Shown piece after piece: positions 9,258 through 53,940 of a DNA stretch of 64,000 bases. The DNA lies in sequence record NC_101842.1; one strand, written 5' to 3'. This stretch comes from a phage. Made by a program: the position numbers and the translations under genes. Within the stretch, counting starts at the first letter, position 1. Every line of letters begins with the position of its first letter. The notes beneath the pieces are model-generated. The model was given only the letters and a program-made list of their open reading frames with translations. It was not told where the DNA came from and searched no databases.

Positions 9258-9575
9258 TCATTCTCCAAAGTCAATCTTTACTTTGCCTTTCCCCTTACCT
9301 TTCTTTCCACCGCATTTAGCCAGCTGACGTGCTGCAACATCTACCATACGGTCAGTTGCCTCGTAAGCATCACTACCTTTAGCCTTGGCAATAACTTCTT
9401 TTCCAGAATTGTCAAAAATGAACGCCATAACTTCCTGGTGATCATTTTCAACTTTTACACTCACACGTGCATAGTTGGCAGAGGGGTGCAAACGCTCCAG
9501 TTTAGACATTTTGTTGGAAATGAAAGACACCATACCTTCAGTGATTTCTACGTTGCCAGTGATTTCAATTTGCAT
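9258..9575 (-). CDS. hpf: ribosome hibernation promoting factor / RaiA (YfiA) family homologue
   Basis: MQIEITGNVEIT...KLE...VSVKVE...KAKGSDAYEATDRMVDVAARQL aligns along its length with E. coli HPF (MQLNITGNNVEIT...KLEQY...VVLKVEK...SAEGQDMYAAIDGLIDKLARQL); Lys/Gly-rich C-tail. Confidence 0.75.
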   Translation of the reverse strand: MQIEITGNVEITEGMVSFISNKMSKLERLHPSANYARVSVKVENDHQEVMAFIFDNSGKEVIAKAKGSDAYEATDRMVDVAARQLAKCGGKKGKGKGKVKIDFGE

Positions 9576-15225: not shown

Positions 15226-15510
15226 CTACCAGGTTACTGTCAAGTAGGCAACCGTATTATTTTTCTCTGGGGAGATGCCAACAACATCTACCTGCAGACC
15301 TCCTGCCCTTAAATCTCCAACAATGTGCGGGAAGTAATCTGAGAGATGCGATGGTAGATTTATCGAAAATCCGCACCCCAGAAAGCCTGCTAACGCTTTA
15401 TTTTGTATCTCCCCTACAATCGCATCATAAATAGAGTTAAGCTCGTCAGGAAGCGTTACAGGACGTTTTAGCGCTAACTGGTGTAATTTGTCCTTAGCAC
15501 TCATTTTCAT
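15226..15510 (-). CDS. hypothetical protein (start refined to MKMSAKDKL, ATGA overlap with upstream stop)
   Basis: upstream gene ends at 15507, so start at 15510 is the first ATG compatible with coupling. Confidence 0.4.
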   Translation of the reverse strand: MKMSAKDKLHQLALKRPVTLPDELNSIYDAIVGEIQNKALAGFLGCGFSINLPSHLSDYFPHIVGDLRAGGLQVDVVGISPEKNNTVAYLTVTW

Positions 15511-16040
15511 TTCAGGTCTACCTCTGGAGGTGCCAACCACATAAATGGCGGCAAGTCTAAACGGTTTTTCTTATCCCAGACAAAATATGCATATGCTTGC
15601 CCGTCAGTTCTGCCATTTGATTGAAAAGATGGACGCTTAGATATTGTGATCACAGTGGTAGGTGCATTATCAAGCCACCATTCAAATCTGGCTTTGCTTT
15701 CCAGAAAATTAAGACGCAAAAGCATAATAACTACGTCAGCATCTTTCAACGCCTTGTCTACAAACTCACGAGCCAAACTGTATGGTGGGTTGGTGATAAT
15801 ACAGTCAACATGGTTGTATTCTGTATTCAGATAGTCAACACCTTCTTGGATTTCTCCCCATGCAGATCCTAACGGCATACGTGAGTAGAACACACCTGAG
15901 GCACTATTCCTGCAAGGCTCTAAATAGGTCCAGTCTTCTGGGAACGTAATAAGGTCATACAGCCCTTCTGCACACCACTCCGGTGTCACATACTCATCGT
16001 AAGCGTTACGTTGTTCATCAGGTTTTCTAGCACAAGTCAT
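15507..16040 (-). CDS. DNA N6-adenine methyltransferase (small, NPPY motif)
   Basis: YVTPEW, EPCRNSASG, IITNPPYS motifs. Confidence 0.6.
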   Translation of the reverse strand: MTCARKPDEQRNAYDEYVTPEWCAEGLYDLITFPEDWTYLEPCRNSASGVFYSRMPLGSAWGEIQEGVDYLNTEYNHVDCIITNPPYSLAREFVDKALKDADVVIMLLRLNFLESKARFEWWLDNAPTTVITISKRPSFQSNGRTDGQAYAYFVWDKKNRLDLPPFMWLAPPEVDLK

Positions 16041-16055
16041 GCAAATCTCCAGATC

Positions 16056-16081
16056 ATAAAAGCCCTCCGAAGAGGGCTTTA
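16056..16081 (-). terminator. intercistronic GC hairpin (aagccctc-cgaa-gagggctt)
   Basis: 8-bp stem, tetraloop, between ClpP-like gene and methyltransferase. Confidence 0.4.
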
Positions 16082-16091
16082 GAATTAATGT

Positions 16092-17138
16092 TTAAGCTTC
16101 TTCGACAATTCCTGCACCCAGGATTTTTTCATTGAGCTCTTTTGCTGTTTTAATAATATTGTCCACCAGACGCTTGCGAGTCTTATCTTTTACCTTAACC
16201 TCTTCACCGCCGTTCAGGGTTGTCTTCAATTGGGACAGAATGTCTTGAAGTTCAACGACAGAGAATCGCTGCAGATCTTCTGAGGTAATCTCACCTAAGG
16301 CAATCTTAATGGTCTCACCACTTTCCATCTGCAGATTTAGGAACACAGTGTGAACATCACCTTTCGAACCAACCGCTTTCGCAGATTCAACAGCATGAAC
16401 TAGCTCATCTAAAGAGGTGCACTGGTGAATCTCAGGAAGACCTGCTTCACCTAACACGCCTTCATCACCTTTTGCCAGAAGCTTTTTAGGTTTTTGTCCG
16501 TTCTGGATGCGCTGTATGTTACCTTCATCCAGAATGATGGCTCCAGTTCGAGCTGCCAGCTCCTCTCCGTCCAACCACACTTCACCACCAGCTGTGATGG
16601 ATGCGATCTCATCTTCTGTCAGCACCCCACCGTAGTATTTTTCGATCAGGCGTTCAAAACGTTTTTTCCAGTAGCTGACCTGAGTATTCATGTTCACACC
16701 GTTACCATAAGTGCCACCTTGATAGTAGTGGAACATAAATTCTGTGTCCGGAGCCACAGTGCGTTCTTTACAACCCAGCCATAAGATTGTTCCCGCAGAG
16801 CAGCACATCCCTTCAGCATGTGCAACAACGCTTGCCTGAGACTCGCGGAATGCCTGTAGATAAGCCATTGCAATGTGCACGCAACCACCAGGGCTATTGA
16901 TGATCACCCGAATGCTTTCTTCCGGCTGAGCCATACGGATCGTCTGCAGACGAGACATATGATCCTGCAGGTCTTCCAAATCGTCGATATAAAGAACGTG
17001 GTCAACAACAGGTGTTGGGTAGCTGTATGTTTCCATGATACCGCCCGGCATACCAAACATTTTATTACTCATAGGTTCGAAACCGTTCTGTTTTTCTTTC
17101 ATGCCGTGTACCATGGTGCTGCGAGGTGTTAAATTCAT
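16092..17138 (-). CDS. ClpP / S14-family serine peptidase homologue with about 150-aa C-terminal extension
   Basis: VIINSPGGCV...GMCCSAGTILWLG...FMFHYYQGG aligns with E. coli ClpP INSPGG...GQAASMGAFLL...VMIHQPLGG. Confidence 0.65.
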   Translation of the reverse strand: MNLTPRSTMVHGMKEKQNGFEPMSNKMFGMPGGIMETYSYPTPVVDHVLYIDDLEDLQDHMSRLQTIRMAQPEESIRVIINSPGGCVHIAMAYLQAFRESQASVVAHAEGMCCSAGTILWLGCKERTVAPDTEFMFHYYQGGTYGNGVNMNTQVSYWKKRFERLIEKYYGGVLTEDEIASITAGGEVWLDGEELAARTGAIILDEGNIQRIQNGQKPKKLLAKGDEGVLGEAGLPEIHQCTSLDELVHAVESAKAVGSKGDVHTVFLNLQMESGETIKIALGEITSEDLQRFSVVELQDILSQLKTTLNGGEEVKVKDKTRKRLVDNIIKTAKELNEKILGAGIVEEA

Positions 17139-17198
17139 GAGAAATCCTTAATATTGGAAGTTGAAAGCTATTTATTTAAACCTGATTCACATTTACCT

Positions 17199-17510
17199 TT
17201 ATTTAGCAATCACTATGGAATACTTACGATTGTCAGAAGCATCACAACTCAATGATTGCCAGTCTACCACATACCACGTATCATTGTCAACAATTACTTT
17301 ATCGCCTGTTCTGTAGCAGGTGCTGCTTTCAATAATTCGAGACTCGATAAAGAATCTGTGTCGGCGCTCACGTAGCAACGCTAAGTTGATTATATTACCA
17401 CCACTGTCCTTGATCCACACATTCTTGGATCCTTTATTTGCCAAAATTGTCTCACCGTTGTAGACGAACAGGCAGTATATTTTATTCAGTCTCTCTTGTA
17501 TTGTAGCCAT
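17199..17510 (-). CDS. hypothetical protein (103 aa, start refined to MATIQERL)
   Basis: aaggagaaggag RBS immediately upstream of internal ATG. Confidence 0.4.
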   Translation of the reverse strand: MATIQERLNKIYCLFVYNGETILANKGSKNVWIKDSGGNIINLALLRERRHRFFIESRIIESSTCYRTGDKVIVDNDTWYVVDWQSLSCDASDNRKYSIVIAK

Positions 17511-17614
17511 ACTATCTCCTTCTCCTTGTTTTGTCCGATGATAATATCTAAAGCTTACCTGTTTGTCAACAACTGTTTTAGATATTTTAAGGGTGGAATA
17601 ACCACCCTTCTGTA

Positions 17615-18403
17615 TTACTCGGAAACAGGGGTCCAAATATGATTTGCACGATCTTCAATAAGATTGAGTGCAATCTGACGACCCAACCCGGAACGAACGA
17701 CATCGTCTGGACTATCAAAGCTAATCATTCCAACCTCAGGATCTGGATGACGAGTAAAGAAATCCGTCACCCATGCGAGGCCAGATTTACCAGGGATGTC
17801 ACGTTGGCTATTATCACCCATAATTACAAGGGTGGCTTGATCAGAGATCCTTGTGATAATTGACAACATTTCTTCAGGGTTAGTTTGCTGTGCCTCGTCA
17901 ATCAGGACAAAGCATCGCTCATCGAAACTACGACCACGAATGCTTTCAACTTCACAAATCTCGATACGACTGTTCTGACCGTCTCCCAGCATTGCGGTAA
18001 AAGCACCTTTGCCAACACGACGACAAATCGTGTCCATCATGCTTCGAAGATAGGGCCACAGTTTCTGCATTGCATTTCCGGGTTTAAATCCTGAAGTCTT
18101 TCCTGTCTGGACGTAAGGACGTGCAACAATGATCTTATCAATCTCGTTCTTACGCAGAAGATCACCTGCATATGCAGATGCCATAAATGTCTTACCGGAT
18201 CCAAACACACCGTTTACAATAATAATCTTACGTGACCCTAGATAATCAAGATACTTTTGCTGCTTCTTATTCATTGGTCGGAGAGCTGGAGCGGTGTGCT
18301 CTCTTTCGTCAGCAAATTTCTCAGCAGCCTTACGCAGGCGATCAGATTTGCGAGCCTCTCTAGCTTCATCACGCATGCGTTTTGTTTCTTTAGCTCGACC
18401 CAT
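17615..18403 (-). CDS. phoH: PhoH-like ATPase
   Basis: Walker A GVFGSGKTF, LIDEAQ motif, PhoH-like length. Confidence 0.8.
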   Translation of the reverse strand: MGRAKETKRMRDEAREARKSDRLRKAAEKFADEREHTAPALRPMNKKQQKYLDYLGSRKIIIVNGVFGSGKTFMASAYAGDLLRKNEIDKIIVARPYVQTGKTSGFKPGNAMQKLWPYLRSMMDTICRRVGKGAFTAMLGDGQNSRIEICEVESIRGRSFDERCFVLIDEAQQTNPEEMLSIITRISDQATLVIMGDNSQRDIPGKSGLAWVTDFFTRHPDPEVGMISFDSPDDVVRSGLGRQIALNLIEDRANHIWTPVSE

Positions 18404-18792: not shown

Positions 18793-18964
18793 TGTTGCAC
18801 CCCCTCTTCATCTTCATGATGTTTATTTTCACGCTTGTGTTTTTTCTTAAGCTCAAGCGCAATCTCTTTCTTGTACGCCTTCTTCAAGGCTTTTTTAGCC
18901 ATTTGGCACCTCCTCTGCTTTCATTACGACAATTATAACCGACTTAACAAAGCTTTGTCAACGA

Positions 18965-47519: not shown

Positions 47520-47803
47520 GAGTTGCTACACTGTTTATTGTGTGCTTGTTATTATGTGGGTGTGCAACCAGCGTTGAGAGAGAATACAAGATTGACCCTC
47601 CGGATGTAGGAAGGTTGATTGTTAAACCCCCGGAAGGTGCCATGAAACCACCTGCTAAAGCTATGCCTTTGAAGAAAGGTGCGCCAGATGCAGTGAATTC
47701 TGGCATTATGAGGGATAATAATCTGTCTTGTAGCAATGATAGAGCTAAATTGATCATTTTGCAAGACTATATTAGAACACTGTTTCCAAAGGAGAGAGGT
47801 TAA
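47516..47803 (+). CDS. o-spanin-like outer-membrane lipoprotein (Pro-rich)
   Basis: signal with LLLCGC lipobox-like site, Pro-rich mature region. Confidence 0.55.
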   Translation: MRVATLFIVCLLLCGCATSVEREYKIDPPDVGRLIVKPPEGAMKPPAKAMPLKKGAPDAVNSGIMRDNNLSCSNDRAKLIILQDYIRTLFPKERG

Positions 47804-49350
47804 TGTCTAAGATTTACGGACCGTGTTCTGAAAAGCAGAAGATGATCCTAGAAAACGATGCAGATATTTTGGTAATCGGCGGTGCCGCAGGGTCTGGCAA
47901 GTCGTTCCTCTTGCAGTTGATGCCACTTAAAATTATTGATGACCCCCACAGCTCTGTGGTTATGTTCCGAAGAACAACCCCACAGTTGGAAGGTGAGGGT
48001 GGACTATGGCCTAAAGCAGTAGCTATTTATAGTGATCTGCCTGAAAACATTAAGCCAAAGTTCAGAGAGAAGGATCATAAGTTCATTTTTCCACGGTTTG
48101 ATCCGAACACTGGTAAGTGGGATAGAAGCAAAAAGGGAGCTGTTGTAAAATACTGCCATATGGAGTATGTACAAGATAAGCTTAACCATCAGGGGCTTGA
48201 GTACACCATGGTTTGCTTCGATGAGGGCACGCAGTTCGAATGGGAGCAGATAGACTATCTGATGTCTCGTCTGCGATCTCAGTCAAAGTATCCATCAAGA
48301 ATGGTTATCAGCTGTAACCCCGATTCAGAACACATGCTTGCCAAACTGGTTAGATGGTGGTTGGACGATGAAGGGTATCCAGATCCGGAGAAATGCGGTA
48401 AGAAAAGATATTTTATCCGACGCGACGGTGAATTTATCTGGGGAGACTCTAAAGAAGAGTTGATAGAGAAATACACCACGGTTAACGGACTTGGCGTAGA
48501 GATCAAGCCAAGACCGTTGTCATTCTCGTTCATAGGCGCAACAATATTCGATAATCCTGTCTGTTTGAGAGACAACCCAGAATACCTTGCTTTCCTCGAA
48601 GGTCTACCAGAGCTGGAAAAAGCTCAGCTTCTCCATGGTAACTGGTTTGCAAAGCCTGAGGGTGCAAACTATTTTCAAAGATCTTTCCTTCGTGATGCCG
48701 ATAGAGTACCTCTTGGGTCAGTATCTTGCAGGGCATGGGATAAGGCAGGAACCGAGAGAACTTCCGGTAATAAATTTCCTGACTTTACTGCCAGTATTAA
48801 GGTAAGTAAAGATAGCGACGGCTTTTATTACCTGTCCGGTGATTATTGTCCTGAGAACGTGGATGACGGGAGGTATTCCACAGGTCTGGAAGGCAAGTTC
48901 TGTAAAAAGGCTGGTGAACGAGATGTGATCATCAGGAAACAGGCGCAGTTCGATGGTGATGATTGCATAATCGTCTTCTCTGTGGACCCAGGGCAGGCAG
49001 GTAAGAGTGAGTTCTTAACCTCCTCCAGATCCTTGCTTGCCGAAGGGTTCAGGGTTGAAGAAGACCCAATGCCTTCCAACAAGTCTAAACTGACAAGGTT
49101 CTCACCTTTTGCCAATCTTGCCCAACAAGGAATGGTGAGGATTGTAAAATCCAGTTTCCATCCTGATACTCTGGAAGCATTTCTGACTGAACTTGAAAAA
49201 TTCAACGGGGAAAGATCAACATTTAACAGAAAAGACGACTGGGCCGACTGTGTAGCTTCTGCGATTAATTTCCTAGAGAAAGAGGAGGTAGCACTTCCTT
49301 GTGTGATTCCATCAATCTCATCACCTTCTATGTTCAAGCGTTTTATCTAA
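47803..49350 (+). CDS. terminase large subunit
   Basis: Walker A GGAAGSGKS near N-terminus, 515 aa, directly upstream of portal. Confidence 0.8.
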   Translation: MSKIYGPCSEKQKMILENDADILVIGGAAGSGKSFLLQLMPLKIIDDPHSSVVMFRRTTPQLEGEGGLWPKAVAIYSDLPENIKPKFREKDHKFIFPRFDPNTGKWDRSKKGAVVKYCHMEYVQDKLNHQGLEYTMVCFDEGTQFEWEQIDYLMSRLRSQSKYPSRMVISCNPDSEHMLAKLVRWWLDDEGYPDPEKCGKKRYFIRRDGEFIWGDSKEELIEKYTTVNGLGVEIKPRPLSFSFIGATIFDNPVCLRDNPEYLAFLEGLPELEKAQLLHGNWFAKPEGANYFQRSFLRDADRVPLGSVSCRAWDKAGTERTSGNKFPDFTASIKVSKDSDGFYYLSGDYCPENVDDGRYSTGLEGKFCKKAGERDVIIRKQAQFDGDDCIIVFSVDPGQAGKSEFLTSSRSLLAEGFRVEEDPMPSNKSKLTRFSPFANLAQQGMVRIVKSSFHPDTLEAFLTELEKFNGERSTFNRKDDWADCVASAINFLEKEEVALPCVIPSISSPSMFKRFI

Positions 49351-49450: not shown

Positions 49451-51007
49451 GTGTCCAAAAAGAACCGCAGGAAACACAACGCCACAGCCAAAACTGTGAA
49501 TAAATCTGGGAACGCAGGCGCACCAACTCATAATGTTCGTATGAGTGAGATCGGTTCTGGCGCACTTTCCCAAATTATGGCAGAATCGCAATCTATGATG
49601 GTTGAGGAATTGCGTTGGCCTCAGCTGATTGCCACAGTGGAGACTATGAAATGTGATTCCACAGTTGCTACTGCCTTAGATACAAAATATGTTTTCATCA
49701 CGAAAGCATTCAATGATTTTAAGATCCTTTATAATGTTAAAAGTGAAGACTCTAAGAAAGCTGCCGAGCTTATAGAGTATTCTTTGCGTAATTTGGCAAA
49801 CCAACAAACTCTTCGAGATATTGCAAGAAGCGCAGCTACCTTTAACGAGTATGGTTTTTCACTGTTTGAGAAAGTATACCGCAGAGAGAAAGAAGGTAAA
49901 TATGCCGGGATGCTTCTTATCGATAAAATTGCATTCCGACCTCAGGCCAGCCTGTCCAGATCAGAGCCGTTTGTTTTTGATAAGAATAGCAGAACACTGA
50001 CAGGTATTTATCAGTCACCTAATGCATTTCTAAACACTCAGAATGCACGCTGGGCTGGACCTCTTGCTGCAATGCCTTCAAAAGGCTTTAATGAGCCTGA
50101 AATTTTCATCCCTGCTAAAAAGCTTATGCTCATGACCCTGTCAGGAACAGAATCTAACCCTGCAGGTGTGTCACCTATGATAGGTTGCTACAGATCTTTC
50201 CGTGAGAAAGTTCTGATTGAAAACCTTGAGGTTGTTGGCTGTTCCAAAGACCTTGGTGGTGTGCTTGAGCTGAAAATTCCTTCCAATATTTTGAACAAGG
50301 CCAGCATTGACCCGAATTCAATGGAAGGGAGAATGGTTGCAGACCTTATGCTTGACGCAGCAAACGCCCATAGTGGTGAGCAAAGTTTCTTTATACTTCC
50401 GTCTGATAGAGATAAGTCTGGTAAAGAGCTTTACTCCATGACCCTGAAGGGGGTTGACGGTATGGGTAAGCAGTATTCCACTAAAGATTTGATTGATGCC
50501 CGTAAGAAGGCGATTCTTGACCGTTTCGGTGCTGGCTTTATTAACCTCGGTAACGATAACGTTGGATCCTTCTCTCTGTCTGAGTCAAAACAGTCTATCC
50601 ATGGTCATTTTGTTCAGCGTGATATAGATATTATCACTGAAGCCTTCAATAAGGATCTTATTCCACAGCTTCTGGCATTGAATGGTATCATCCTTGAAGA
50701 TGATGATATGCCTAAACTGAAACCTGGTCTGATTGAAGAAGTGGATATGGAGAGCTTCTCCAAGTTTGTCCAGAGGATCGGTGCTGTAGGTTACTTGCCA
50801 AAAACTCCTGCAGTAATTAATAAGATTCTTGAAGTAGGCGGGTTTGATGAAAGATTTGACGAGGACATGGATCAGGAAGAGCTGATGAAGCTCTTGGGCC
50901 AGGACATCAGTAGAGCTGGTGATGGAATGGCTGCAGGATCCACTGGCAACGGCACTTCTAAGATATCATCAACCAGAGATAATTCCATATCCAACATGGA
51001 AAATTAA
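49451..51007 (+). CDS. portal protein (putative; GTG start)
   Basis: 518 aa immediately after large terminase, acidic C-terminus; assignment by synteny and size. Confidence 0.55.
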   Translation: MSKKNRRKHNATAKTVNKSGNAGAPTHNVRMSEIGSGALSQIMAESQSMMVEELRWPQLIATVETMKCDSTVATALDTKYVFITKAFNDFKILYNVKSEDSKKAAELIEYSLRNLANQQTLRDIARSAATFNEYGFSLFEKVYRREKEGKYAGMLLIDKIAFRPQASLSRSEPFVFDKNSRTLTGIYQSPNAFLNTQNARWAGPLAAMPSKGFNEPEIFIPAKKLMLMTLSGTESNPAGVSPMIGCYRSFREKVLIENLEVVGCSKDLGGVLELKIPSNILNKASIDPNSMEGRMVADLMLDAANAHSGEQSFFILPSDRDKSGKELYSMTLKGVDGMGKQYSTKDLIDARKKAILDRFGAGFINLGNDNVGSFSLSESKQSIHGHFVQRDIDIITEAFNKDLIPQLLALNGIILEDDDMPKLKPGLIEEVDMESFSKFVQRIGAVGYLPKTPAVINKILEVGGFDERFDEDMDQEELMKLLGQDISRAGDGMAAGSTGNGTSKISSTRDNSISNMEN

Positions 51008-51074
51008 AAATTATCAACACAGGGGGTTGCAAAACCTCCTTTGGCGTGATAAAATAATCCACATGGGGAATAAG

Positions 51075-51494
51075 ATGCCACAGGAAGAAATGATTTCCTA
51101 CGAAATCATCTACGAGCCTGACACTAAAGATGCTCACGGTGAGTGGATGAGTAAAGACACCATCAAAAAGGCTAAAGATAACTGGGACGCAGCATACGCT
51201 GCAGGCCTAGTTTCTGAAAACCTTTTCCACTTGACCTCTACAGATGCTTTCACTATTGAAAAGACGTGGATTCAAGAAGAGTTTGATGTTGTAGTAATTG
51301 GCACTGAGCAGGTCATCAAGGCTGGCTCTTGGGTTGCTAAAGTTAAATACAATAATCCTGAATTATGGGAAGCTAAGAAGGCTGGCATTGTTGGTGGCCT
51401 AAGCATTCAGGCAACAGGTAATGTTGATGAAGAAACTGGTGAAATTACCAACGTAAACTTCGGGATCAGTGTTGTAGAAGAGGGCAATGAATAA
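51075..51494 (+). CDS. hypothetical head-module protein (about 139 aa; start uncertain, 51063 also possible)
   Basis: ORF between portal and scaffold; no protease motifs recognised. Confidence 0.4.
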   Translation: MPQEEMISYEIIYEPDTKDAHGEWMSKDTIKKAKDNWDAAYAAGLVSENLFHLTSTDAFTIEKTWIQEEFDVVVIGTEQVIKAGSWVAKVKYNNPELWEAKKAGIVGGLSIQATGNVDEETGEITNVNFGISVVEEGNE

Positions 51495-52471
51495 TGTCTG
51501 AAAAAACGATTACTATTAAAGAGAAGGGGATTGCCCTGTGCCATAAGGCGCAAGGCTATAGCGCTAACAACAGACCTGTATCTCTTTTGATGAAGAGTGA
51601 TCTTAAGCCTGAGCAGTTAACAGACGATATTGTTAAGGCACTTCGCCAAGTTACTGTGGAGCTTAGTTTTGAAGAATACCTGCGTCGTTTCTTCGATATG
51701 TGGTATGATGATGCTAAAGCACTTGCACACATGCTTGGTTTTGAGATTGAAGAGGAGGCTTGGGCTAAAGAGCATCCTGATTGGGAATGGGCGCAAGCTG
51801 ACGCAGAGTCTTGTATTGCATGGCTGGAAGAGCGTTGTGATAACGTGACCATTCATAAGGCTGCAAAAGAAGGCAAGCAGCTTAGTGTAGTAGATCAGTA
51901 CAGCCTGTTAAAAACACAACAGATTTTTGAACAAGTAACCGCTGATCTCTTCGATAAAGAAGGGAACCTGATCAAGGCGGTACAGGAACCTGCTGAGGTG
52001 GATAAAACTACCGAGGTGGATGATGTTGCAAAATCCGCAAATACCGAGGAGAATCCGGTGGACGTAACCAAAACTAAAGAGTATCTGGATCTGCTGAAGC
52101 AAGTAGAAGAGCTGAAAGCAACCCAGAGTAAAGCTGAAGAAATCATCAAGGCCCAGGTTGAAGTTGAAAAAGCTAAAATGCTGACTAAGGCTCAAGCTTT
52201 AAGCTTTGTTGGTGAAGAAGATCATGCAACCCTGGTTGACTTCATGCTGGAAAAAGCTAACGAACCTATCGTAGCTATGCTGGAGAAAGCTCAAGCAAAA
52301 ATTGAAGAGCTGGAAGCAGAGGTGCATAAAACCAAAGAAGAGTTTGCCACCACTGAACATGGTAATGATGGCGAACCTGTTGTGGATGATATTGCAAAAT
52401 CCGCAGAAGAAATTCTTGCTGAAAACGTTGCAAAAGCACTTGCTCGTGCACGTGCAGAATCTACCAAATAA
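51494..52471 (+). CDS. capsid scaffolding protein (putative)
   Basis: acidic, helical, E/K/A-rich with repeated VDD(V/I)AKSA motif; between portal and major capsid. Confidence 0.55.
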   Translation: MSEKTITIKEKGIALCHKAQGYSANNRPVSLLMKSDLKPEQLTDDIVKALRQVTVELSFEEYLRRFFDMWYDDAKALAHMLGFEIEEEAWAKEHPDWEWAQADAESCIAWLEERCDNVTIHKAAKEGKQLSVVDQYSLLKTQQIFEQVTADLFDKEGNLIKAVQEPAEVDKTTEVDDVAKSANTEENPVDVTKTKEYLDLLKQVEELKATQSKAEEIIKAQVEVEKAKMLTKAQALSFVGEEDHATLVDFMLEKANEPIVAMLEKAQAKIEELEAEVHKTKEEFATTEHGNDGEPVVDDIAKSAEEILAENVAKALARARAESTK

Positions 52472-52491: not shown

Positions 52492-52881
52492 ATGATTACC
52501 GCTCAATATTCTGATATCGTGCTCGGCAAAGTTGATTCTAGCGATGCTGGCTACAATTTTAAAGAGATGGAAATTACACTGACAGAGCACCATCATGCTG
52601 GCACGGTAGTGACAAAAGATGGTAGCATTGCCAATCAGGACGGTTCAGACGCATATGGCGTTCTGGTGGATCGTGCTTTAATTCCAGACTCTGCTGGTAA
52701 AGTACATATCGCTGAACCTCTTGGCACAAAGAAATATAAACTGGTTGTTGCTGTGCGTGGTGTTACTTTTGCCAAGGATAAATTACTGGCAACTGGTGGC
52801 GCTAAAGCAGCACAGGCTGTGTTAGACAAGCTTGAGGCTCTGGGTAACAAGGTTCAAGTCCAGACCCTTGGTGATGAGTAA
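52492..52881 (+). CDS. hypothetical capsid-associated protein (possible decoration protein)
   Basis: 129 aa directly upstream of major capsid gene. Confidence 0.35.
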   Translation: MITAQYSDIVLGKVDSSDAGYNFKEMEITLTEHHHAGTVVTKDGSIANQDGSDAYGVLVDRALIPDSAGKVHIAEPLGTKKYKLVVAVRGVTFAKDKLLATGGAKAAQAVLDKLEALGNKVQVQTLGDE

Positions 52882-52929: not shown

Positions 52930-53940
52930 ATGATTACTCGTAAAGATGAATTCGGCATTGTTGATTTAGGTGCTACTCTGGACCTTGTTCCTCGCCAATT
53001 CCGACCGATTACCGGTATGGATCTGTTCGAAACCCGTCTCGGCACCTCAACGATTGCTCAGATCGAGCGTGTTGATGAAGTTGTAACCGACATTCCGGCA
53101 CGCCGTCGTGGTGGTGAGCGTAACTACGTTGGTAGTGAACGTGCTCAGGTTAAAAACCTGAACATCCCGTTCTTCCCTCTGGACAAAGGCATCACTGCCG
53201 CAGATGTTCAGAACTTCCGTCGTTACTTCACCCCTGATGCTCCGAAAACTGTTCAGGACGTAGTAACCCGCGTTGTTCGCCGTATCCGTGTTTCTCATGA
53301 AGCACTGCGTGAGAAAGCGCTGTTCCAGGCTATTCTGGGTAAATCCTATGCACCTGGTGACACCACTTGTCAGTATGATTACTACACTCTGTGGGGTGTG
53401 TCTCAGAAATCTGTTGAAATTGATCCTGCAAAAGCAGATCAGGATCCTATGGAGGTTCTGGAAGAAGCTCGTCTGCACATCGCGCTGCAGGCTGGCGATA
53501 ACGCAGCTGGCTATCGCATCGTAGCCCTGTGCTCACCAGAGTTCTTCAGTGCTATTACCCATCACCCGCTGGTAGAACTGGCATACACCTATTATGGCTC
53601 TGCTCAGGAACCTCTGCGTCGCCGTCTGGGTGCTGGCGGTCAAGACAGCGTATACCGTGTGTTTGAGCATAAAGGTATCACCTTTATCGAAGATATCTCT
53701 GGCAATATTCCGAAGAAAGAAGCTCGCATTCTGCCGATGGGTATTGATCAGATGTTCCAGCTGCACTTTGCTCCGGCAGACGATGTTAACGAAGCAAACA
53801 CTCCAGCACAGGAACTGTACATGTGGTATAAACACTCTGCATACCTGCGTGAAGAGAAGATCGAATCTGAAACTTCTATGCTGGCAGTTAACACCCGTCC
53901 AGAGCTGGTTGTTAAAGTAACTCTGAAAAACGGTGACTAA
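52930..53940 (+). CDS. major capsid protein (putative)
   Basis: 336 aa after scaffold, strong terminator downstream, codon usage shifted relative to early genes. Confidence 0.65.
   Translation: MITRKDEFGIVDLGATLDLVPRQFRPITGMDLFETRLGTSTIAQIERVDEVVTDIPARRRGGERNYVGSERAQVKNLNIPFFPLDKGITAADVQNFRRYFTPDAPKTVQDVVTRVVRRIRVSHEALREKALFQAILGKSYAPGDTTCQYDYYTLWGVSQKSVEIDPAKADQDPMEVLEEARLHIALQAGDNAAGYRIVALCSPEFFSAITHHPLVELAYTYYGSAQEPLRRRLGAGGQDSVYRVFEHKGITFIEDISGNIPKKEARILPMGIDQMFQLHFAPADDVNEANTPAQELYMWYKHSAYLREEKIESETSMLAVNTRPELVVKVTLKNGD

Follow-up and report, generated by a model that had tools for sequence, protein, structure and literature searches.

The gene at positions 16,092 to 17,138 of the DNA examined here (64,000 nucleotides of the phage record NC_101842.1, in the following called the window) encodes, in the reading we favour, a non-structural, cytoplasmic serine peptidase of the ClpP fold which would be transcribed together with the early or middle genes of nucleotide metabolism and replication and would not act in the prohead. 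We put the probability of this reading at about 0.6. The protein has the ClpP fold with an invariant Ser114-His137 pair and invariant oxyanion glycines, the head module of the phage contains a separate S78-type protease, and the non-head context of the gene is conserved in other phages. The initial annotation had left the choice between a displaced prohead protease and a peptidase directed at proteins of the host or at early proteins of the phage. What it said on the ClpP-like nature of the protein, on the C-terminal extension and on the position in the early block stands, whereas the displaced prohead protease is not supported in view of the S78-type protease, and it is the second role that we favour. 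The analysis adds one new point, namely the recurrent pairing of this gene with a gene for a PhoH-like ATPase.

The peptidase gene and its family

The source DNA is that of a Vequintavirus, an rV5-like myovirus of E. coli. Over the 4 kb surrounding the peptidase gene, HdK5 and MaxTheCat have a sequence that is 100% identical, and about 100 further phages reach 97-99% identity. About 18 GenBank records (MG0656xx) are labelled as Campylobacter jejuni phages, but over the regions searched they share about 98% of their sequence with rV5-like phages of E. coli, so that this host label looks doubtful.

The start codon ATG of the peptidase gene is preceded at a distance of 6 nt by the Shine-Dalgarno sequence AAGGA. 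The same protein, 100% identical and with the same gene neighbours, is found in HdK5, MaxTheCat and V18. In rV5 the orthologue gp122 is listed as "ClpP (ATP-dependent) protease subunit" in Table S3 of the rV5 paper (PMC3606486), the BASEL phage annotation calls it "ClpP-like protease", and in most deposited genomes it is annotated as 'ATP-dependent Clp protease proteolytic subunit'. The peptidase is already known, since more than 100 deposited Vequintavirus genomes contain an identical, labelled protein, and as a gene call it is ordinary. A literature search (phage-encoded ClpP, Vequintavirus Clp protease, ClpP-like prohead protease) returned no experimental study of this phage ClpP-like family, and PADLOC gave no defence or anti-defence match for the peptidase.

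The Pfam profile PF00574 (CLP_protease) matches amino acids 59-168 with 47.7 bits at a cut-off of 20.2, which places the protein in the ClpP superfamily (MEROPS clan SK). PHROG 5410 is matched over its full length (E 2.3e-153, 511 bits; amino acids 24-344 on profile positions 4-322 of 323), followed by PHROG 1827 (E 2.6e-40) and, as a secondary match, by the head-protease family PHROG 1684 (E 6.6e-22, 79 bits). PHROG 1827 is a widespread family of phage proteins labelled 'ATP-dependent protease', and PHROG 5410 is a branch of it with long members. In the comparison with the S14, S49 and prohead protease families CLP_protease exceeds its cut-off, whereas the head-maturation model NF045542 and the S49/NfeD-type profiles stay below theirs (NfeD1b_N 18.8 vs 40, SDH_protease 15.8 vs 31.3, SppA_dom 14.3 vs 155). 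The features discussed in this and the following sections are collected in Table 1.

Table 1. Features of the peptidase gene, its neighbours and the head module (positions in the window)
Feature	Position	Strand	Basis or remark
ClpP-like serine peptidase gene, PHROG 5410, rV5 gp122 orthologue	16092..17138	-	ORF and profile matches; 348 aa plus stop
ClpP-fold catalytic core, aa 45-215	16494..17006	-	AlphaFold model, pLDDT about 88-94 (to about aa 220)
Codon of Ser114, the putative catalytic serine (Ser97 of E. coli ClpP in the alignment)	16797..16799	-	invariant in alignments
Codon of the putative catalytic His137, aligned to ClpP His122	16728..16730	-	invariant in alignments
Codon of Glu186, at the ClpP Asp171 triad position	16581..16583	-	D, E or Q in relatives
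Variable linker, aa 216-261	16356..16493	-	pLDDT <50 at aa 223-239 and 257-261; poor conservation in long-form alignment
Clade-specific C-terminal domain, aa 262-348	16095..16355	-	beta-hairpin plus three helices; conserved F292, E296, L297, R321, L324
N6-adenine DNA methyltransferase gene, directly downstream of peptidase	15507..16040	-	PHROG 799, E 1.7e-66
103-aa ORF, PHROG 5456, between PhoH and peptidase genes	17199..17510	-	
Putative sigma-70-like promoter TTGACA-17-TATTAT, upstream of 103-aa ORF and peptidase	17541..17569	-	11/12; consensus match only
PhoH-like ATPase gene, upstream of peptidase	17615..18403	-	Pfam PhoH 161 bits and synteny
TerL	47803-49350		head module
Portal	49451-51007		head module
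XkdF/S78-type serine protease ORF, prohead protease candidate	50919..51494, alternative start 51075	+	Pfam PF14550 and PHROG 3017
325-aa protein, PHROG 2970	51494-52471	+	head module
Decoration protein	52492-52881		head module
gpE-type major capsid protein	52930-53940	+	head module

Protein architecture and active site

The AlphaFold model of the peptidase contains the ClpP alpha/beta fold, in agreement with the profile matches, and the ClpP motifs on which the original call was based are present at amino acids 80-85, 112-116 and 136-142. A search of BFVD returned the same fold, labelled "Clp protease", from T4-like and T5-like phages and also from jumbo and marine ones. The handle helix (amino acids 150-169) is present in the monomer model. 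Amino acids 1-42 in front of the core are predicted to be disordered (pLDDT <50) and are variable among the relatives. Behind the core, the long C-terminal extension that had been noticed earlier resolves into a variable linker and a C-terminal domain.

Ser114, His137 and the glycines Gly84-Gly85 of the oxyanion loop are invariant in 20 long-form homologues and likewise in E. coli ClpP and in a set of 13 phage sequences that covers about nine genera. This invariance among homologues that are only 23-38% identical points to selection for catalysis, and the protein would be expected to cleave by means of the Ser114-His137 pair. The position of Asp171 of ClpP is less constant: of the 13 phage sequences in the alignment, 8 have D or E there and the others, including most of the close long-form relatives, have Gln, for which reason the chemistry may differ from that of ClpP.

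The C-terminal domain folds separately when it is modelled alone (amino acids 262-342, pLDDT 81.8). No Pfam family matches it at threshold, and a profile of the domain searched against 1.84 billion representative proteins retrieved seven entries only, which are ClpP-like fusions of the same clade, two fragments and one repetitive protein of 1281 amino acids. The latter was considered as another context for the domain and judged spurious. The extension is weakly related to its Certrevirus counterpart (hhalign 60%). An extension shared with ICP1 gp211 (326 aa) was also considered and rejected, the hhalign probability being 0.5%.

Gene neighbourhood and transcription

In the order of transcription on the minus strand, the genes for the PhoH-like ATPase, the 103-aa ORF, the peptidase and the N6-adenine methyltransferase follow each other with gaps of 104, 60 and 51 nt. 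The order peptidase, methyltransferase is also found in Certrevirus, in Barbavirus and in a Barbavirus-like contig (L016). We thus confirm the location in the early, nucleotide-metabolism region next to PhoH and a methyltransferase; the head genes are 32-38 kb away and on the opposite strand. With the putative sigma-70-like promoter and the good Shine-Dalgarno sequence, the peptidase would be expressed early or in the middle of the infection alongside the genes of nucleotide metabolism and replication. A perfect sigma-70 consensus (TTGACA, 18 nt, TATAAT) is present at 18932-18961 on the minus strand, upstream of a 116-aa ORF and PhoH.

Further away, the reading frame at 9258-9575 on the minus strand corresponds, by coordinate offset and equal length, to a coding sequence of MaxTheCat that is annotated as 'ribosome hibernation factor'. 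Such a gene is unusual for an early region, and it could be of interest here if ribosomes or RNA are what PhoH acts on.

Homologues in other phages

The neighbourhoods were counted in 13 annotated phage regions, 7 metagenomic loci and one published genome, a small and non-random sample. Short and long homologues of the peptidase occur across the phage groups with 23-38% identity, and they lie in replication or nucleotide-metabolism neighbourhoods. In KVP40 the gene is located between frd and uvsX and in T5-like phages between the dNMP kinase and holin genes. KVP40, being T4-like, presumably has a gp21-type head protease and the T5-like phages presumably have a T5-type one. Further neighbourhoods were those of ICP1 gp211, Otagovirus, Pakpunavirus, Certrevirus, Barbavirus, Vibrio phage F99 and several metagenomic contigs.

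For ICP1 the predicted capsid protease is a different, late-expressed protein, gp125. The gene gp211 is the upper bound of a gene range whose nucleotide-metabolism subset peaks in mid-infection, a statement on the range and not on the profile of gp211 itself. In Barbavirus the gene for a peptidase, gp097, stands between those for portal and capsid (PMC6715854), and P26059A encodes an XkdF protein (ORF 10) besides its ClpP (ORF 116) (PMC5964084). Iyer et al. (2021) suggested that the patchily distributed phage ClpP proteins are directed against the host and do not serve virion maturation (PMC7824862).

The candidate head protease of the phage

In the initial annotation no protease had been recognised in the head module. 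This is not correct, for the portal gene is immediately followed by an ORF that matches Peptidase_S78_2 (Pfam PF14550) with 64.6 bits at a cut-off of 24 and the 'head maturation protease' family PHROG 3017 with an E value of 1.2e-13. The best PHROG of this ORF is 1530, labelled "DNA methyltransferase", and the RefSeq annotation of Murica carries the same label, which is probably a propagated mis-annotation. A sequence search of the PDB gave no significant match to the ORF, and NCBIfam has no model for it. In W70, another member of the Vequintavirinae, the PHROG 1530 orthologue is described as capsid maturation protease, and in the Certrevirus CB7 the portal-adjacent 21-kDa equivalent is described as "prohead core protein protease"; both were detected in virions (PMC11370258 and PMC7344957, jointly for the two phages). 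Judged by its profile matches, this ORF is the actual candidate for a catalytically active head protease, and with it there is no puzzle of a missing protease in this phage.

Two further observations concern the head module. The gene of the 325-aa protein, which lies between those of the protease and the decoration protein, has the position expected of a scaffold gene, yet its orthologue is abundant in mature W70 virions (913 spectra). It could be a scaffold, a cement or an internal protein. In the mass spectrometric analysis of rV5 virions the peptide R.KDEFGIVDLGATLDLVPR was found, which in the major capsid protein spans residues 5-22. From residue 5 onward the N-terminus of this rV5 protein is thus retained, and the substrates of the head protease must be others.

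Alternative roles

One alternative is that the peptidase is a displaced prohead protease, packaged into proheads perhaps via its C-terminal domain and processing scaffold or capsid there. Head maturation proteases of the ClpP type do exist, the peptidase has secondary matches with families of this kind (PHROG 1684 and NCBIfam NF045542), and head proteases commonly bear C-terminal targeting or scaffold extensions. The score with NF045542, the model for ClpP-related head maturation proteases, is however only half of the cut-off (60.4 vs 120 bits). The true ClpP-type head proteases among the weak matches of our profile search (loci L013-L015 and L017) are encoded between portal and capsid genes, whereas the peptidase gene lies in the nucleotide-metabolism block far from the head genes. 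We also considered the C-terminal domain as a capsid-targeting signal and rejected this, as it has no similarity to the S78-type protease and to the 325-aa and 281-aa head proteins (hhalign probability ≤0.5% each). Mass spectrometry detected 19 proteins in rV5 virions, and gp122 (38,541 Da) was not among these; the list of 28 virion proteins of W70, a phage that may or may not carry a PHROG 5410 gene, contains no PHROG 5410 protein either. Prohead proteases often digest themselves and leave the capsid, so that absence from virion proteomes is weak evidence. The intact N-terminal part of the rV5 major capsid protein also speaks against a role in the head, and so does the fact that ICP1, Barbavirus and P26059A each have a dedicated head protease besides their homologue of the peptidase. 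These lines are consistent when taken together and, since the premise of a protease-free head module is false, the displaced prohead protease is largely refuted and in our view highly improbable.

A different possibility is that the peptidase plugs as proteolytic subunit into the host ClpX or ClpA and thereby re-programmes or supplements ATP-dependent proteolysis. This is what the annotation of most deposited genomes implies, and the ClpP fold, the conserved Ser-His active site and the handle-helix region of the model would fit, but the parts needed for docking do not. We compared the residues that we take to form the IGF/IGL pocket of E. coli ClpP, namely Y60, Y62, F82, I90, M92, F112, L114 and L189. 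In an alignment of about 24% identity Y60, F82, I90, M92, F112 and L114 map to R77, E99, H107, E109, T127 and A129, i.e. to residues that the analysis counts as polar or charged, while Y62 aligns to I79. The long-form clade has R77, E99, H107, E109 and T127 without exception, while its residue at position 129 is Ala or Ser, and in none of the aligned phage relatives is the hydrophobicity of the mapped positions conserved. For the N-terminal axial loops and helix A of ClpP no alignable counterpart was found in the disordered amino acids 1-42, and the equivalog models for ClpP reach about one tenth of their cut-offs (TIGR00493 33.2 vs 308.6, PRK00277 38.2 vs 249). We therefore regard a subunit of host ClpX or ClpA as unlikely. 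Loss of the docking pocket and the unconserved triad Asp position, which is Gln in most close relatives, could also be taken as signs of a catalytically dead ClpP-fold protein that serves as scaffold, chaperone or decoy, for example by poisoning host ClpP rings. Yet Ser114, His137 and Gly84-Gly85 have been kept across distant lineages, and at about 24% identity co-assembly with E. coli ClpP is unlikely, so that we give hardly any credence to this explanation.

Pairing with PhoH

In 7 of the 11 sampled lineages the ClpP-like gene is preceded, at a distance of less than 2 kb, by a PhoH gene of the same orientation. The loci of this comparison were, besides positions 15507-18403 (minus strand) of the window, L004, L005, L008, L010, L011, L016, L018, L019, L020 and L022. 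Where it was measured, the ClpP-like proteins of the paired lineages are less than 40% identical to each other; F99 and P26059A are outside the identity matrix. The spacing of the two genes differs. They overlap by 8 nt in two Otagovirus phages and by 4 nt in contig L019, and in Barbavirus and its relatives we find a gap of 53 nt, a gap of 11 nt (L016) and an overlap of 1 nt (L018). PhoH is also upstream in Certrevirus, and in ICP1 and F99, in both of which a small PHROG 8141 ORF is found in between. In P26059A the PhoH and ClpP genes are adjacent by ORF numbering (ORFs 116 and 117), and in contig L011 the upstream partner is a PIN-PhoH fusion. Two unrelated lineages have an HNH homing endonuclease gene between the partners, ICP1 (gp209, L004:2538-3170) and L011 (L011:5070-6008); these genes are secondary insertions. 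L018 combines a ClpP-like protein that shares 71% identity with that of Barbavirus and a PhoH that shares 49% with that of ICP1 and only 24% with that of Barbavirus. The adjacency has thus survived a swap of the partner. No adjacent PhoH is found in four lineages, KVP40, T5-like, Pakpunavirus and Dorisvirus. Our literature search brought up no paper that discusses the pairing, and one may exist.

Possibly the two genes constitute a conserved functional module, in which the PhoH-like ATPase and the ClpP-like peptidase act physically together or in one pathway. PhoH may recruit, remodel or unwind RNA-protein substrates which are then degraded by the peptidase that lacks the docking pocket, and the clade-specific C-terminal domain could be an additional tether. 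The recurrence of the pair in spite of low identity of the ClpP-like proteins, the overlapping or nearly abutting stop and start codons in Otagovirus, L016, L018 and L019, by which the pair would often be coupled in translation, the secondary nature of the HNH genes, the exchanged PhoH type of L018 and the PIN-PhoH fusion of L011 are all in favour of such a module. However, four lineages do without an adjacent PhoH, the sample is small and non-random, and genes of nucleotide metabolism cluster in phages anyway. Moreover, PhoH is an SF1-helicase-like ATPase and not an AAA+ unfoldase, and we know of no precedent for PhoH feeding a peptidase. We therefore put the module forward as a tentative idea which we would sooner bet against than on, although we take it more seriously than any of the alternatives discussed above.

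The role of phage PhoH is still described as enigmatic (PMC7824862). If the module were real, the wide distribution of phoH among phages would for the first time become accessible to a mechanistic explanation. The gene is widely used as an ecological marker, and the recurrent pair is a cheap and testable lead into the function of phage PhoH.

Proposed role of the peptidase

We return to the reading of a non-structural, cytoplasmic peptidase, which would be self-contained. The protein would probably assemble into ClpP-like rings and would cleave host proteins or non-structural phage proteins or peptides in the cytoplasm of the infected cell. As hydrophobic pocket and N-terminal helix are not conserved, it may act without canonical docking to host ClpX or ClpA. 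Substrate or partner specificity is probably supplied by the clade-specific C-terminal domain, and the neighbouring PhoH-like ATPase, as the best candidate for a functional partner, would probably contribute to it. Since the residues for docking to ClpX and ClpA are replaced by polar ones, it is doubtful whether the peptidase is the subunit of an ATP-dependent protease, and the usual label "ATP-dependent Clp protease proteolytic subunit" probably over-states what is known.

Comparison with known systems

The orthologues in other Vequintavirus genomes do not differ from the peptidase in any distinguishing feature. The short-form relatives of 180-260 amino acids, in contrast, are without the linker and the C-terminal domain of about 85 amino acids. 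With ICP1 gp211 and the ClpP of KVP40 the peptidase shares the core with invariant Ser and His and the non-head context; gp211 has a C-terminal extension of its own, which is not homologous to the one described here.

Bacterial ClpP (S14; E. coli ClpP, PDB 1TYF/1YG6) is about 24% identical. It has the hydrophobic pocket and the N-terminal axial loop and helix A, neither of which is matched in the phage peptidase, which has Glu or Gln at the position of Asp171 and adds the C-terminal domain. SppA (S49) and NfeD/1510-N are ClpP-fold peptidases that work independently of ATP. Of these, SppA is a membrane-anchored protease with a Ser-Lys dyad, whereas the phage peptidase has no evident membrane segment. 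The ClpP-related head maturation proteases of phages (NF045542; PHROGs 1684, 94, 2976 and 133) are similar in their ClpP fold and Ser-His pair, and C-terminal extensions are frequent among them as well. Their genes, however, are placed between portal and major capsid, whereas the peptidase gene is located elsewhere, in a phage that has an S78-type head protease instead.
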